Shown piece by piece: positions 10,245 through 63,973 of a stretch of 64,000 nucleotides of DNA. The notes under the pieces were generated by a model. It ran no database searches, was not told where the DNA came from, and was given only the letters and a program-made list of their open reading frames with translations. Source of the DNA: an uncultured Gammaproteobacteria bacterium (GTDB lineage Bacteria; Patescibacteriota; Microgenomatia; Levybacterales; UBA12049); NCBI GenBank assembly GCA_964408485.1, contig CAYOZJ010000003.1:65290-129289 (forward strand), in the 5' to 3' direction. Each line of letters begins with the position of its first letter. The first letter of the stretch is position 1. The position numbers and the translations under genes are program-made.

Positions 10245-10332
10245 CTTGTCATTCTGGCACTCGATTCAGTACTTGCTTCGCCGAAGCGGCGCTTTCCAGA
10301 ATCTGGATTCCTGCCTTCGCAGGAATGACACT
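10245..10332. repeat. MITE-like palindromic repeat, GTCATTC...GAATGAC family, copy R1
   Basis: Reads gtcattctggcac...ccagaatctggattcctgccttcgcaggaatgacac; nested hairpins; shares the cttcgccgaagcgg motif with copy R5. Confidence 0.6.
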
Positions 10333-13447: not shown

Positions 13448-14266
13448 TTATTCTACTACTTTTCGTAGGCTTTCCACTTCTTTTTTTGACAATTCTCTGT
13501 ATTCTCCTCGTTTTAAACTTCCTAATTTGAGTGGACCAAAGGCAATGCGTTGTAAATCAAGAAGTTGTATTCCCATTTCTTCACACATCCGTCGAATTTG
13601 TCTATTCCGTCCTTCGTGAAGGGTTATGTCTAGGGTTGTTTTTTCCTTGTCATTCCCGCGCAGGCGGGAATCCAGATGGTCTATTTTTGTTTTAGAACCT
13701 GGATCCCGCATCAAGTGCGGGATGACACGTTGTGAGTTCGGGATGACTGTTTTAACGACAGTCACTTCTGCAGGCATTGTTATTCCATCTTCTAAAATAA
13801 CACCTATGCGAAGTTGCTCAAGTTGTCCTTTTGTTGGTTGTCCTGCAACAAGAATTCGGTACAGTTTGGGTACATGGTAGCGAGGATGAATAAGCTGATG
13901 AGTTAACTCTCCATCATTTGTTAACAAAACAAGCCCATGAGAATCTTTATCCAGTCTTCCAACAGGATAAATTCTGTAGGGAGTATCAATAAGAGAAGTC
14001 ACTGTGTCACGCGCAAATTCGTCTGCAGTTGAGGAAATAATGCCAATTGGTTTATTTAATATATAGTAAACAAAGCCAGGCTTTTGTACTTTTTCACCAT
14101 TTATCAAAACAAGTTGCTTACTACCTACCCGGATTCCAGATTCTGTTACTCGTTTGCCGTCAATAGTAACGTCATTATTTTTCAAAAATGACTTTACCCC
14201 TCGCCGGGAAATTATCCCAGCATTAGCTAAAAATTTATCCAAGCGGATTTTTATATCTTGCTGCAC
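13448..14266 (-). CDS. RluB/RsuA-family pseudouridine synthase (S4 domain plus catalytic domain) carrying a 35-aa in-frame insertion
   Basis: S4 region RLDKFLANAGIISRR, catalytic PVGRLDKDSHGLVLLTNDG, C-terminal LHEGRNRQIRRMCE; GTG start; the insertion IPNSQRVIPHLMRDPGSKTKIDHLDSRLRGNDKEK is encoded by repeat copy R2. Confidence 0.8.
   Translation of the reverse strand: MQQDIKIRLDKFLANAGIISRRGVKSFLKNNDVTIDGKRVTESGIRVGSKQLVLINGEKVQKPGFVYYILNKPIGIISSTADEFARDTVTSLIDTPYRIYPVGRLDKDSHGLVLLTNDGELTHQLIHPRYHVPKLYRILVAGQPTKGQLEQLRIGVILEDGITMPAEVTVVKTVIPNSQRVIPHLMRDPGSKTKIDHLDSRLRGNDKEKTTLDITLHEGRNRQIRRMCEEMGIQLLDLQRIAFGPLKLGSLKRGEYRELSKKEVESLRKVVE
13649..13747. repeat. MITE-like palindromic repeat copy R2, lying in-frame inside the pseudouridine synthase gene
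   Basis: Reads gtcattcccgcgcaggcgggaatccagatgg...cctggatcccgcatcaagtgcgggatgacacgttgtgagttcgggatgac; three hairpins; the insertion spans codons 175-209. Confidence 0.65.
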
Positions 14267-14629: not shown

Positions 14630-15511
14630 ATGCCCCACAATAAAAAACCAGATCTTTGGGTAAGTCACTCCTCAATACATGATTACCTGACATGTCCTCG
14701 TGCATATTGGATTCGTCATTTGTATAGAAATCCTAAAACAAATAATAAAGTAAATATTATTAATCCCGCCTTGGCGCTAGGGTCTATTGTTCATCAAGTG
14801 TTGGAGGCTCTTTCTGTTGTAAAAGTAGAGGATAGACTTAAGCAGCCGCTTCTTGAGCAGTACGAAAAAGCATGGGAGCAAATACGTGGGGAAAAAGGAG
14901 GATTTGAAAGTCCCGAACAAGAGTTGGAGTATAAAAATCGTGGTGCGATTATGATCAATCGTGTGTTATTTCATCCGGGTCCAATAGAGCAAAAAGCAGT
15001 CAAATTAGCTTCTCCTGACAGCTTGCCTCCGCGATATTATTTATCTCCAGAAGAGGGGATTATTTTATGCGGAAAAATAGACTGGCTTGAGTATGCCCCA
15101 CAGGATGATAGTGTGCATATTATCGATTTTAAGACAGGCAAAAATGAAGAAGACGAGGATTCTTTGCAGTTACCAATTTATGCGCTTCTGGTAAAGAATT
15201 GTCAGAATAGGAAGGTAAGTAAAATTAGTTATTGGTATTTAGAATCAGATAACGAGCCTAAGGAAATGCCTTTTCCGAATTTAGATACTGCGCATGAAAA
15301 AATCTTAACAATTGCTAGGGAAATTCGTGCAGCACGGGAAAAAGGTCATATGGTATGTCCAAAGGGTGGTTGTTTTGCGTGTCGAGGACTTGAGCAAATT
15401 GTTGCAGGAAAAGCAAAATTTATTGCGACTGAAGGATATCAGGATATATTTACTATTCCAAAAGCCGAGACCACGGCAGATTATAAAAAAGAAGACATTA
15501 CCCCCTTTTAA
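14630..15511 (+). CDS. PD-(D/E)XK nuclease, RecB/Cas4-like with Fe-S cysteine cluster
   Basis: N-terminal Cys (DYLTCPRAYW), motif HIIDFKTGK (the D-x-K of the PD-(D/E)XK core), QLPIYALL (a Q-h-x-x-Y motif), C-terminal CPKGGCFAC three-Cys cluster. Confidence 0.65.
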   Translation: MPHNKKPDLWVSHSSIHDYLTCPRAYWIRHLYRNPKTNNKVNIINPALALGSIVHQVLEALSVVKVEDRLKQPLLEQYEKAWEQIRGEKGGFESPEQELEYKNRGAIMINRVLFHPGPIEQKAVKLASPDSLPPRYYLSPEEGIILCGKIDWLEYAPQDDSVHIIDFKTGKNEEDEDSLQLPIYALLVKNCQNRKVSKISYWYLESDNEPKEMPFPNLDTAHEKILTIAREIRAAREKGHMVCPKGGCFACRGLEQIVAGKAKFIATEGYQDIFTIPKAETTADYKKEDITPF

Positions 15512-53868: not shown

Positions 53869-54987
53869 ATGCAAAATCTTTGGCAGACACTTCCTAAGCC
53901 TATTTTTTCTTTGGCTCCGATGGAGGATGTAACAGATACTGTCCTTCGCCAAATCTTTTGTATTACTGGTAAGCCAGATGTTTTCTTTACAGAGTTTACT
54001 AATGTCGATGGAATACAGTCTCAGGGTCACGACGTTGTTGCAAGGCGCCTTCAATTTACTAATACCGAACATCCAATCGTTGCACAGATTTGGGGTATGA
54101 TTCCGGAGAATTTTTATAAGACAGCAAAAGACTTAGTAGAAAGAGGATTTGATGGAATAGATATAAATATGGGGTGTCCCCAGCATGATGTAACAAGTCA
54201 TGGTGCATGTAGTGCGCTTATTAAAAATCCTTCCCTTGCTCAGGAAATAATCCAGGCCACAAAAGAGGGAGCCCATTCGACAAGTTCAGAACAAACACAA
54301 AACTTACCCGTTAGTGTTAAGACAAGAATTGGATTTAAAACAATTGCAACAGATGAATGGATAGGATTTTTACTCGGGCAAAAATTGAGTCTTATTACTG
54401 TTCATGGTCGTACAGCGGCAGAAATGTCTAAAGTTCCGGCTCATTGGGATGAAATTGGCAATGCTGTAAGGTTGAGAGATGAATTTGAAAAGAAAAACGC
54501 CCTCACCCTTGACCCTCCCGCGCTTGTCAAGCAAGCAGCCTCCCTCACTTCGTTCAGTCCGGCCCCAGAGGGCGAGGGAAAACATGGTAGTGCTTTGCAC
54601 ACACTAATAATGGGCAATGGAGATGTGCAAAGCTTAGAGGAAGCAAAAGAAAAAATTGCCACATATCATGTTGATGGCGTTATGATAGGTCGTGGAATAT
54701 TCCATAACCCATGGATTTTTGCAGGAATTGATCCCAAGACCAAATCGCTTCAGGAAAGACTTGAATTACTTAAGACTCATGTTGCGCTGTATCAAAAAAC
54801 ATGGGGAGCACAAAAATCATTCCAGATCTTAAAGAAATATTTTAAAGTGTACCTATCAGACTTTGATGGAGCAAATGAAATGAGGCAGCAATTTATGAAT
54901 ACTAACTCTTATGAGGAAGCTCTTTCCCTTGCTGACAAGTTCCTTTTGTCATCCCGGACTGCGCTGCTTCGGGGAAGCAAGTACTGA
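53869..54987 (+). CDS. dus: tRNA-dihydrouridine synthase (Dus) carrying an in-frame insertion of about 39 aa
   Basis: LAPMEDVTDTVLRQI, GIDINMGCPQ, GNGDV and GVMIGRG motifs; the inserted segment FEKKNALTLDPPALVKQAASLTSFSPAPEGEGKHGSALH is encoded by repeat copy R4. Confidence 0.85.
   Translation: MQNLWQTLPKPIFSLAPMEDVTDTVLRQIFCITGKPDVFFTEFTNVDGIQSQGHDVVARRLQFTNTEHPIVAQIWGMIPENFYKTAKDLVERGFDGIDINMGCPQHDVTSHGACSALIKNPSLAQEIIQATKEGAHSTSSEQTQNLPVSVKTRIGFKTIATDEWIGFLLGQKLSLITVHGRTAAEMSKVPAHWDEIGNAVRLRDEFEKKNALTLDPPALVKQAASLTSFSPAPEGEGKHGSALHTLIMGNGDVQSLEEAKEKIATYHVDGVMIGRGIFHNPWIFAGIDPKTKSLQERLELLKTHVALYQKTWGAQKSFQILKKYFKVYLSDFDGANEMRQQFMNTNSYEEALSLADKFLLSSRTALLRGSKY
54497..54580. repeat. palindromic repeat copy R4, in-frame inside dus
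   Basis: gccctcacccttgaccctcccgcgcttgtcaagcaagcagcctccctcacttcgttcagtccggccccagagggcgaggg has outer inverted arms CCCTCACCC/GGGCGAGGG and shares cttcacttcgtt(c/t)ag with copies R5 and R6. Confidence 0.55.
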
Positions 54988-55014
54988 GTCGAGTGATCCG
55001 GGATCAAGGAATTA

Positions 55015-55107
55015 GATTCTTCACTTCGTTCAGAATGACGAGAAGACTGGATTTCCCCCAAGGGGATTAGCTTCGCCGAAGCGGTCCCGCCCTGCGCGGG
55101 AATGACT
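55015..55107. repeat. MITE-like repeat copy R5 (composite)
   Basis: cttcacttcgttcagaatgac...gcttcgccgaagcgg...cccgccctgcgcgggaatgac combines the motifs seen in R1, R2, R4 and R6. Confidence 0.55.
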
Positions 55108-55156
55108 GTTTGTTTTTATTCTGTTACTCTAGCACTCAGATGAATGCTGTGCCAAT

Positions 55157-55730: not shown

Positions 55731-55900
55731 GCATTTTCAAAAATAGTTGTCTTATCCAGTCAAAAGTAATGCGAAATTCTGGTTCGGTGCTTTTACTGCG
55801 CTCTAATTTAGGCAAAAGAGAAGTCTCCCATCCGTTTCCTGAAAAAGAGGGAGTAAAGCTAACAACTGTGTTTTTTAAATTTATTTCTTCCATATATTTT

Positions 55901-55957
55901 GTCATTCTGGCTTGTCCAGAATCTAGATCCTGGATGCGCTACGCTTACCAGGATGAC
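55901..55957. repeat. MITE-like repeat copy R7, immediately 3' of lexA
   Basis: gtcattctggcttgtccagaatctagatcctggatgcgctacgcttaccaggatgac: two hairpins (attctgg/ccagaat and atcctgg/ccaggat) and GTCAT/ATGAC termini; the first 37 nt are identical to R8. Confidence 0.7.
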
Positions 55958-55964
55958 GGTTAAA

Positions 55965-61540: not shown

Positions 61541-63061
61541 TCAATTAGAAAAAACTTTCTTAAAAGCAGCAGTTACTTTTTTTAAGTCTTCAGTTAGCTC
61601 GTCTGTCACTTTTTTACCAGATGAAAGGCGTTCTATGAGTTTTTTATCGTGGGTTTTTACGTATGCATGATATTCTTTTTCAAATTGTAAGATATTTTCT
61701 ACTTTTACATCGTCTGTAAATCCATTAGTAACAACCCAAATAGACAGTACCTCCTGTGCTTCTGTAAGAGGCTGATATTGTGACTGCTTGAGCATTTCTG
61801 TTAGCCTTTTCCCTCTTTCAAGCTGCTGCAGTGTTGCTGCGTCTAATTCTGAGCCAAATTGGGCAAAAACAGCTAATTCTCGATATTGTGCAAGTTCTAG
61901 CTTAATTCGACCAGACACAGATTTCATTGCTCCAGTTTGTGCAGCGCCGCCTACTCTGGATACTGAATTTCCAACATCAACTGCTGGTCTAATGCCAGAG
62001 TTGAAAAGATCAGACACTAAGAAAATTTGACCATCGGTAATAGAAATAACATTTGTTGGAATGTATGCGGAAATGTCATTTGCCTGGGTTTCAATAACAG
62101 GGAGAGCGGTAATAGAACCGCCACCAAGCTTATCAGAAAGTCTTACTGCTCGTTCCAAAAGTCGTGAATGAAGATAGAAAACATCTCCCGGGTATGCTTC
62201 TCGTCCTGCAGGGCGTTTTAAAACAAGGGACAAATTTCTCCATGCCCATGCATGTTTGGTGAGATCGTCATAGACAATAAGGACATCTTCACCCTTTTCC
62301 ATAAAGTATTCAGCAATAGCAACACCCGCATATGGAGCCAAGTATTGAAGGGATGCAGGATCTGCTGCTCCTGCATTAACAATAATTGTGTAATCAAGAG
62401 CTCCTGTTTCTTTAAGTTTTTCAACAACTTGTGCAACGGTTGATTGTTTTTGTCCAATTGCAACATAGACACAGAGTACTCTTTTGCCGCCTTCTTTTTC
62501 TGCATTTTTTTGATTAATGATCGTATCAATTGCAACGGCAGTTTTTCCAAGACCGCGGTCTCCAATAATAAGCTCTCTTTGGCCTCGTCCAACTGGAATA
62601 AGTGAGTCAATTGCTTTAATACCGGTCTTTAAAGGCTTATCAACAGGTTGTCTATCAATAACACCGGCAGCAATTCTTTCAAGTGCCATATCTTTCCCTT
62701 TTTTAACCTCTCCCTTACCATCGAGTGCTTTTCCAACTGGGTTAATAACACGGCCTAGTAAGTCTTCGTGCGCTTTAATAGTAAGAAGTTGACCTGTTGT
62801 TTTGACTTGATGTCCTTCGGTCAAGTTGTCTGATCTGTCCAAAAGGACAATAGAAACACTGTCTTCGTCTAAGTTAAGAATAAGTCCAGGAGTACCATCT
62901 TGAAAAACAACTTGTTCTCCCATTTGTGCTTTGGAAAGACCGGATGCAACGACGACATTATCGCCAATGGATTCAACAATGCCAACATTTTGTGCTTTAC
63001 CACTTGTTTGGAAAGAGTCCAGTTTATTTTCTAAGTTTTTTAAAATATCTTCACTTTTCAT
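61541..63061 (-). CDS. atpA: F1 ATP synthase alpha subunit
   Basis: Walker A GDRGLGKTA, length 506 aa. Confidence 0.95.
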   Translation of the reverse strand: MKSEDILKNLENKLDSFQTSGKAQNVGIVESIGDNVVVASGLSKAQMGEQVVFQDGTPGLILNLDEDSVSIVLLDRSDNLTEGHQVKTTGQLLTIKAHEDLLGRVINPVGKALDGKGEVKKGKDMALERIAAGVIDRQPVDKPLKTGIKAIDSLIPVGRGQRELIIGDRGLGKTAVAIDTIINQKNAEKEGGKRVLCVYVAIGQKQSTVAQVVEKLKETGALDYTIIVNAGAADPASLQYLAPYAGVAIAEYFMEKGEDVLIVYDDLTKHAWAWRNLSLVLKRPAGREAYPGDVFYLHSRLLERAVRLSDKLGGGSITALPVIETQANDISAYIPTNVISITDGQIFLVSDLFNSGIRPAVDVGNSVSRVGGAAQTGAMKSVSGRIKLELAQYRELAVFAQFGSELDAATLQQLERGKRLTEMLKQSQYQPLTEAQEVLSIWVVTNGFTDDVKVENILQFEKEYHAYVKTHDKKLIERLSSGKKVTDELTEDLKKVTAAFKKVFSN

Positions 63062-63390
63062 AGGCTTTGAATAAATTCATCCAAACTATTTTTAAGACTT
63101 ATGTCATATATCATGTCATTATCAATAATTTTTGCTCCCAGAAGAAGAGATGTATCTTCAACAACGACAACACTTTTTTTTGTTTTGCCTAACAATGCTT
63201 TATTATAAAGCCTACCATCTGGTAACACAAGAGAAATCGTGCGGGATTTCTCGGCAAGCTTAAGACCTCGTACATACAACTTCAAATCTGCACGTGATAG
63301 AAGAGTTGCAATTTTACTTACCCGTTTATCATCGAGTTTGTCTTTTGTGTAGCTTACCTGTACCAACTGACTAATTTGTTTTTTGTTCAT
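63058..63390 (-). CDS. atpH: F1 ATP synthase delta (OSCP) subunit, short form
   Basis: Position between atpF and atpA; 110 aa with a C-terminal LLLGAKIIDNDMIYDISL pattern; shorter than the canonical ~180 aa. Confidence 0.55.
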   Translation of the reverse strand: MNKKQISQLVQVSYTKDKLDDKRVSKIATLLSRADLKLYVRGLKLAEKSRTISLVLPDGRLYNKALLGKTKKSVVVVEDTSLLLGAKIIDNDMIYDISLKNSLDEFIQSL

Positions 63391-63399
63391 ACTTAAAGT

Positions 63400-63468
63400 G
63401 TCATTCTGGCTTGTCCAGAATCTAGATCCTGGATGCCTCCACGCTTCGCTCTGAGTTACCAGGATGAC
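63400..63468. repeat. MITE-like repeat copy R8, in the atpF-atpH intergenic region
   Basis: gtcattctggcttgtccagaatctagatcctggatgcctccacgcttcgctctgagttaccaggatgac is near-identical to R7, with an extra cacgcttcgctctgag segment. Confidence 0.7.
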
Positions 63469-63475
63469 GAAAAAA

Positions 63476-63973
63476 TTATGCTTTTAGTTTTTTCGTCACT
63501 TTACCTACAATTTCTTTCTCTGCCTTTTTATCTACCATACCTGAAAGTGATTTTTTCAAAAGCTCCACAGCAAGAAGGGCTGTATGCTTGGAAAGCTGGT
63601 GTTGTGCTTCTACTGTTTGCTCTTCTATTTCTTTTTTTGCATCCTCAAGCATCTTTGCAACTCTATCTTTTGTTTGCTCTTCCGCTGTTGTCAAAATCTC
63701 TTGGGCTTGTTTTTGTGAGTCAGCGAGGACTTCTTGGGAAGCGACTTGAGCCTTTTTAAGGATTTCTTTTTCTTTTTCTTCGGCCTTCGCAAGTGCTTCC
63801 TCTGCCTTTTGTGAATTTGTTACTGTTTCAACGACCATTTTGCGACGCTTTTCAAGCATTGCCAAGATTGGTTTGTACGCAAAACGCTTTAGCAGCCAAA
63901 AGATAATCAAAAAATTAACTATTTGCGCTGCAAGAAGTATCCAATTTACTCCAAAACTATGTAAAATTTCCAT
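63476..63973 (-). CDS. atpF: Fo ATP synthase b subunit
   Basis: N-terminal TM helix NWILLAAQIVNFLIIFWLL followed by a long charged coiled coil (AEEA..KAEE..). Confidence 0.75.
   Translation of the reverse strand: MEILHSFGVNWILLAAQIVNFLIIFWLLKRFAYKPILAMLEKRRKMVVETVTNSQKAEEALAKAEEKEKEILKKAQVASQEVLADSQKQAQEILTTAEEQTKDRVAKMLEDAKKEIEEQTVEAQHQLSKHTALLAVELLKKSLSGMVDKKAEKEIVGKVTKKLKA

Follow-up and report, generated by a model that had tools for sequence, protein, structure and literature searches.

Palindromic repeats that survive in frame within genes have so far been seen mainly as a Rickettsia curiosity. These Rickettsia palindromic elements (RPEs; Ogata et al. 2000) are described, in the summary given in PMC10969869, as palindromic sequences of about 100-150 bp that lie in frame in genes whose open reading frame (ORF) is kept. 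A second class was defined only in 2025, as repeats around genes: the 28-nt Neisseria Transformation Sequence (NTS), CGTCATTCCCGCGMAVGCGGGAATCYRG, and the broader Ssn-related motif (SRM), with the pattern HGTCWYN(0-2)YYVSBRHN(0-5)WNVSBRGN(0-2)RNCYNB (PMC11893778). SsnA, a small GIY-YIG nuclease (cd10448), cleaves single-stranded DNA (ssDNA) beside NTS/SRM hairpins, the repeats and ssn genes co-occur across phyla, and in Neisseria the integration of transforming DNA is modulated by NTS repeats (PMC11893778, Nat Commun 2025). The locus considered here lies in a 64,000-nt stretch of contig CAYOZJ010000003.1 (hereafter the window), where a composite repeat with GTCAT and ATGAC ends interrupts the gene of an RsuA/RluB-family rRNA pseudouridine synthase and is translated as a loop of this RNA-modification enzyme. 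Very probably, an SRM-type palindromic repeat has entered the codons of a hairpin turn, with the ORF preserved, and is carried as a tolerated passenger rather than as a functional module. The locus is thus a new case, outside Rickettsia, of a known phenomenon, in which RPE-type behavior is joined to a sequence of the NTS/SRM class.

The host protein shows the features that define its family, namely the S4 (4e-10) and PseudoU_synth_2 (4e-24) Pfam domains, a GRLD sequence with the catalytic Asp, and the motif HEGRNRQIRRM. RluF, RsuA, RluB and RluE are the solved structures that it matches by sequence. In an alignment of 119 homologues, which extends to ~52% identity with the window protein, no family-invariant residue is missing from the synthase; D106 of GRLDKD is among those retained, as are the residues of HEGRNRQIRRM. 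Its target is hinted at only by some homologues whose source name is '23S rRNA pseudouridine2605 synthase', which would suggest a modification such as the 23S psi2605 of RluB. The ORF is intact despite the insert: both the ORF list and the sequence are free of stops across the repeat, as the initial annotation had stated, and translation returns the peptide and flanking blocks quoted there (...PAEVTVV-KTVIPNSQRVIPHLMRDPGSKTKIDHLDSRLRGNDKEK-TTLDITLHEGRNRQIRRM). The insert-bearing enzyme is probably still active.

Measured between ...PAxVxVV and TxLxxTLHEGRNRQ, the segment that separates the two conserved blocks is 38 residues long in the window protein; of the 70 best homologues, 61 have 6 residues there and one has 5, which makes a net gain of 32 residues over the family loop. 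The 6-residue turn occurs in ~110 of the 119 aligned homologues, all of them without the element, and is fixed in homologues down to ~47% identity. A family profile places the insert point at a turn of 2-6 residues in the solved RsuA, RluF and RluB (RsuA VLEVITP/TQVRLTISEGRYHQ; VLEVITP/TQVRLTI), which bears out the earlier description of these blocks as contiguous in E. coli RsuA and RluB. The size first given to the insert, 105 nt or 35 aa from position 13640, is slightly too large, as KEK is part of the host loop whereas the first V is part of the element; the insertion itself stands, at 99 nt and 33 codons (13649-13747). With a GC content of 53%, the element also differs from the window (37%).

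The length of the homologue loop, the dispersed copies of the repeat and the foreign GC content together support the origin proposed in the initial annotation, an element insertion and not an ancestral loop. The clean indel anticipated from an ortholog alignment appears as the 38 versus 6 residues above, and no relative carries the 35-aa segment, which would have pointed to an ancestral loop. Since the source is a metagenome assembly, an assembly artefact, or else a loop ancestral to this lineage, deserves mention; both are extremely unlikely, because the family loop is fixed at 6 residues, the insert DNA matches dispersed repeats, the two flanks come from one gene and are in frame, and comparable inserts are found at the same point in independent assemblies from NCBI, JGI and Logan.

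Two of the six frames of the element are free of stops, one sense (that used by the gene) and one antisense. As only one sense frame is open, the open frame is not built into the element and is what a selective filter would leave. The earlier remark that the insert is a multiple of three without a stop consequently describes this copy correctly and does not extend to the element in general. The antisense ORF across the repeat has no Pfam match and uses the only other stop-free frame, so that its dismissal as an artefact was reasonable. A terminator scan finds no terminator-like site on either strand, and Rfam at gathering thresholds returns two tRNAs only in the whole window, with no family at the repeat.

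In gene orientation the element reads GTCATCCCGAACTCACAACGT, GTCATCCCGCACTTGATGCGGGATCCAG, GTTCTAAAACAAAAATAGACCAT and CTGGATTCCCGCCTGCGCGGGAATGAC, and it consists of two complete hairpin units, inverted to each other, and one truncated unit. Its ssDNA fold is much stronger than those of shuffled sequences (z -4.4 and -4.6), with unit 3 left unpaired. The bases at 13648-13675, TGTCATTCCCGCGCAGGCGGGAATCCAG, equal the NTS consensus apart from the first, which is the base before GTCAT. Both complete units match the SRM pattern, at 13648-13675(+) and 13699-13727(-), and these are two of only three matches in the window, where first-order Markov simulations give an expectation of 0.08. The stems follow GTCAT, giving the hairpin semi-palindrome with an oriented, non-palindromic 5' flank that characterizes NTS/SRM repeats, and unit 1 encloses ATTCCCGCGCAGGCGGGAAT at 13652-13671, a 20-bp ATTCCC-N8-GGGAAT sequence as in the definition of dRS3. 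By sequence, units 1 and 2 are NTS/SRM-type repeats with a dRS3 core. The 'RPE-like' label of the initial annotation, which fits the behavior of a palindromic repeat kept in frame as a surface loop, can be sharpened to this class.

The same unit is widespread. In a scan of one genome per species, the exact NTS-type unit of 27 nt, scanned as GTCATTCCCGC-N3-6-GCGGGAATCCAG, is present in at least 120 loci, and the matches listed come from Proteobacteria (including Neisseria and a Rickettsia endosymbiont, L123, with six copies in 8 kb), Chloroflexi, Planctomycetes, Nitrospirae, Bacteroidetes, several Patescibacteria and a Nanoarchaeota metagenome-assembled genome (L051). The loci inspected share a layout of unit, spacer and inverted unit with an ATGAC end, which identifies the present element as an inverted pair of the SRM type with a truncated unit in addition. 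Within 8 kb around each of the at least 120 listed loci, an Ssn-like GIY-YIG ORF accompanies the unit in only two (L029 and L105).

Five composite elements are found in the 64 kb, each starting with GTCAT, ending with ATGAC and bearing inverted hairpin units at its ends (Table 1). Unit 1 of the insert recurs at 10303-10328 with 3 mismatches, where shuffled sequences give an expectation of 0. Elements D and E share a stretch of 38 nt that is 100% identical (55900-55937 and 63399-63436), which suggests that they were recently copied. The neighbors of element E, annotated as ATP synthase genes, are ORF 63058..63390, in the delta position upstream of the alpha subunit ORF, and ORF 63476..63973.

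Table 1. Coordinates of the synthase gene, its insert and the related elements in the window
Feature	Position	Strand	Description
RsuA/RluB-family rRNA pseudouridine synthase (host gene)	13448..14266	-	272 aa; intact ORF; Pfam and structure matches
Composite repeat element, GTCAT...ATGAC	13649..13747	-	99 nt; in-frame translation V174-D206 (VIPNSQRVIPHLMRDPGSKTKIDHLDSRLRGND), 33 codons
Unit 1, NTS-type SRM hairpin, GTCATTCCCGCGCAGGCGGGAATCCAG	13649..13675	+	8-bp stem, 4-nt loop; reads LDSRLRGND in the gene
AT-rich spacer between inverted units 1 and 2	13676..13698	.	From the sequence; layout also seen in other phyla
Unit 2, SRM hairpin, GTCATCCCGCACTTGATGCGGGATCCAG	13699..13726	-	Inverted to unit 1; 8-bp stem, 5-nt loop; reads VIPHLMRDP
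Unit 3, truncated, GTCATCCCGAACTCACAACGT	13727..13747	-	Without 3' arm; reads VIPNSQR
Antisense ORF, judged spurious	13626..13880	+	84 aa; wholly within the synthase gene; stop-free frame +1 of the element
Element A	10248..10331	.	Intergenic; two inverted GTCAT units (repeat comparison)
Element C	54941..55108	.	Longer mosaic copy; carries last ~15 codons and stop of Dus-like ORF 53869..54987
Element D	55901..55959	.	Intergenic; two abutting inverted units (repeat comparison)
Element E	63400..63470	.	Intergenic, between two ATP synthase genes (repeat comparison)

Several described repeat families resemble these elements in part. With the NTS/SRM repeats they have in common the oriented hairpins, the GTCAT 5' flank, the occurrence in multiple copies, the distribution across phyla and, for units 1 and 2, the fit to consensus and pattern. 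PMC11893778, however, describes repeats that cluster around genes and flank ssnA, whereas no ssnA homologue is present in the 64-kb window; the main text of that paper mentions neither in-frame coding insertion nor Patescibacteria, and a literature search yielded no publication that connects SRM/NTS repeats with Patescibacteria or with insertion in frame. The likeness to RPEs, as far as the summarized account of these goes, lies in a palindromic repeat in frame in a housekeeping gene, with the ORF open and the peptide at a fold-compatible position. An exact NTS-type unit in the inverted-pair layout even occurs in the genome of a Rickettsia endosymbiont (L123). In contrast to RPEs, the host here is, judging by how the sources of homologues are named, probably a member of Patescibacteria, the element has no more than one open sense frame, and several related lineages have inserts at this loop; moreover, the comparison with the ten RPE families in that account is one of behavior and not of sequence.

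The dRS3 repeats and Neisseria intergenic mosaic elements (NIMEs) offer a further parallel, in that unit 1 contains ATTCCC-N8-GGGAAT and the elements are built, mosaic-like, from hairpin units with spacers. NIMEs form intergenic arrays in Neisseria, whereas the element described here is intragenic, in an unrelated genome that is AT-rich. [quoted passage not shown] They differ from classical MITEs in that the five copies show no consistent target-site duplication, and from REPs in that the latter are species-specific while the present units are conserved across phyla. No cognate or parent insertion sequence or RAYT was seen near the copies in the window, which is partly annotated.

The position of the insert in the protein was considered in an AlphaFold2 (AF2) model based on the 119 sequences, with a pLDDT of 88.7 and a pTM of 0.79 (an earlier 32-sequence model had reached a pLDDT of 65). 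In this model strands 167-174 and 209-216 are connected by the insert (~residues 175-208), a coil of low confidence, and Foldseek matches the model to the RNA complexes of RluF and RluB with TM scores of 0.73-0.74. Such a coil, at a point that is a turn of 2-6 residues in RsuA, RluF and RluB, corresponds to the fold-compatible surface position typical of RPE peptides. The tip of the hairpin would be distant from the active site; a strand of 8 residues lies between it and the conserved motif. In a set of 150 diverse representatives of the family, unrelated, non-SRM expansions of 12-75 aa occupy the same turn in the distant RluB-like proteins P0128, P0138, P0208 and P0144 (35-75 aa in the first three, smaller in P0144), that of P0128 being an Asn-rich low-complexity stretch; the loop therefore tolerates insertions across the family.

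A disordered insert of 32 residues, some eight residues before the conserved active-site motif, could nevertheless have inactivated the enzyme and left a young pseudogene that has not yet acquired stops. This is very unlikely. The full-length ORF keeps each family-invariant residue, the model is confident outside the insert, and the insert point is a hairpin turn in the solved family members. In addition, relatives of the synthase keep conserved, intact ORFs with decayed inserts, and alleles that bear inserts therefore persist under selection.

Extra residues are present at the same loop in eight other homologues, including P0002, P0004, P0007, P0009, P0014, P0023 and P0030; across the alignment, loop inserts occur in 9 of the 119 homologues and internal inserts of at least 4 aa elsewhere in the protein in none (0/119). 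P0014 (L008) has one intact unit, GTCATCCCGCACTCGATGCGGGATTCAG, with 26 of 28 positions identical to unit 2 of the window (93%), versus 68% DNA identity between the host genes of L008 and the window. Decayed units of the P0014 type are found in P0023 (L159) and P0030 (L160), at 23/28 in each case, and P0004 (L007) retains a degenerate relic, GTCCTGCCGG...CCGGGATTCA. P0009 (L003) contains an intact, near-perfect palindrome of 57 nt, GTCATCTCGA...TCGAAATGAC (z -2.6), and inserts of this type occur in decayed form in P0007 (L005) and P0002 (L001). All of the relatives' inserts and that of the window have one orientation and frame, in which GTC-AT... is read as V-I.... On a neighbor-joining (NJ) tree of the proteins with the loop masked, derived from one 231-column alignment and without support values, the carriers are dispersed, and each has a relative with an empty site next to it (P0009/P0008 at 94% and P0007/P0005 at 91% aa identity, both pairs at 82-83% in DNA). 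Close relatives were also sought in metagenomes; most of the sequences retrieved were distant homologues, and none added a filled site. The recurrence of GTCAT-type inserts at one loop among relatives is a new result and the sole aspect of this case that might lead further.

The insert of P0009 (GTCATCTCGAAC...GCTCGAAATGAC; L003 3001-3789) represents a second insert type, with GTCAT/ATGAC ends and outside the strict SRM pattern; no further copy of it was seen in 6.8 kb of locus L003. P0004, the closest named homologue, is labelled 'Candidatus Eisenbacteria', which may reflect a binning error, because it shares its gene neighborhood with the other relatives, and some of these bear a Patescibacteria label. 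In the window, the synthase gene is divergently paired with a gene for a PD-(D/E)XK (PDDEXK_1, Cas4-like) nuclease at 14630..15511, and the same pairing is found in L001, L003, L005, L006 and L007, which are all the relatives with enough flanking sequence, with or without an insert.

Recurrence at one loop could arise through site-preferring integration, the loop codons being a preferred landing site for GTCAT-type repeats and the inserts independent, targeted events. Targeting of this kind would account for nine homologues with an insert at this loop and none with one of at least 4 aa elsewhere, for carriers that stand beside empty-site relatives on the tree, for insert types that vary by lineage (VIPH-type, VISN-type) and for the intact palindromes in the window, L008 and L003. 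It would also explain the single orientation and frame with its GTC-AT start, yet a stop-codon filter predicts this equally. The empty sites of relatives, moreover, have no common DNA motif, the insert position shifts by one codon, and, at only 82-83% DNA identity, the 'sister' pairs have had time to gain and lose inserts. The non-SRM expansions of P0128, P0138 and P0208 at the same loop mean that tolerance alone can concentrate surviving inserts there. Independent targeted integration consequently appears rather improbable, and it is likewise doubtful that the turn-coding site is a recurrent, possibly preferred landing site for SRM-like repeats in one clade of Patescibacteria. The host V-T-V-V codons had also been considered as a mimic of an element junction (GTGAC-T-GTCGT), a notion dropped since the empty sites of relatives are without that DNA.

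Alternatively, a single old insertion may have been followed by turnover in situ, with modules swapped or trimmed through recombination with genomic copies and with many losses in individual lineages, for instance by replacement with an empty allele. P0007 and P0009, which belong to different subclades, nevertheless have the same type of insert and an N-T-T sequence as 3' flank, P0023 and P0030 have the relic ...PHS(M/I)RDLK in common, and the inserts of the window, P0004 and P0023 all start with K-T-(V/A)-(I/L)-P; these features, shared across subclades, favor shared descent or allele exchange. The inserts also form a series from intact to decayed, and, as expected if a patch had been exchanged, the flanking loop residues are wholly different in relatives with and without an insert. 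On the other hand, many independent losses would be needed, each restoring exactly 6 residues, which favors repeated gain; SRM units are conserved across phyla, and similar inserts therefore need not share descent; and the tree that separates the carriers is drawn from one protein alignment without support values. One old insertion with later turnover is possible, though on the whole unlikely. An excision footprint, sought by aligning the empty P0008 loop with the 3' end of the P0009 insert, was rejected as too weak a match.

It has also to be asked whether the insert has been exapted, either as a new protein loop or as a DNA or RNA hairpin with a local role, such as a cut site for Ssn by which recombination would be limited. 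Inserts recur at the loop in several lineages, unit 2 and the L008 insert agree at 93% of positions while the host genes are 68% identical in DNA, and NTS repeats in Neisseria modulate the integration of transforming DNA (PMC11893778). Nonetheless, most relatives are without any insert, the insert sequences differ and several are decayed, the peptide is predicted to be disordered, neither strand has a terminator-like site, and the conservation of the unit is explained by that of SRM units across phyla. A function of this kind is highly improbable.

The most likely interpretation is thus a tolerated passenger at a permissive loop. A small, non-autonomous palindromic repeat, whose unit family is the one tied by PMC11893778 to Ssn GIY-YIG ssDNA nucleases, is inserted in the beta-hairpin turn codons of an RsuA/RluB-type synthase. 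The synthase gene is still read through because the copy lies in the sole stop-free sense orientation and frame and its length is a multiple of three. The ~32 residues that the enzyme gains would form a flexible loop, which lies where the strand leading into HEGRNRQIRRM has its far end, and selection would have let the insert through at this permissive position. An Ssn-type nuclease, or recombination between copies, may have moved the element, and the insert peptide is presumably neutral.

Three observations count against this interpretation. Searches of the 64-kb window by tblastn, with two Ssn-like proteins from L029 and L105, gave no homologue of Ssn (cd10448 GIY-YIG), so that the mobilizing partner in the Ssn link is only a proposed one. 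The five copies show no target-site duplication or other transposition footprint and have no consistent flanking direct repeat. Finally, insert alleles recur at one loop in several lineages, a pattern that a random hit combined with tolerance does not obviously predict. In this respect, the filled, decayed and empty alleles at one loop constitute material on the gain and loss of repeats, and if the loop were a true landing site, the allele series would reveal how Ssn-associated repeats insert and are lost.

More generally, GC-rich hairpin units in small AT-rich genomes can give rise to spurious antisense ORFs, altered C-termini and lineage-specific 'loops', and annotation and structure pipelines will misread such hairpin-derived features. 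The Dus-like tRNA-dihydrouridine synthase ORF 53869..54987 (+) ends in this way: its C-terminal ~15 codons (…LLSSRTALLRGSKY) and stop fall within element C (54941-54987), which has therefore probably replaced or extended the native C-terminus of the protein. Another GC-rich part of this ORF, at 54497-54582, was considered as a member of the repeat family and rejected, as it shows no palindromic character (z -0.28) and occurs only once in the window. This stretch, with 61% GC, encodes residues ~198-243, the segment in which the Dus-like protein has ~40 extra residues in comparison with solved Dus structures (query 195 aligned to chain 176, query 250 to chain 189).

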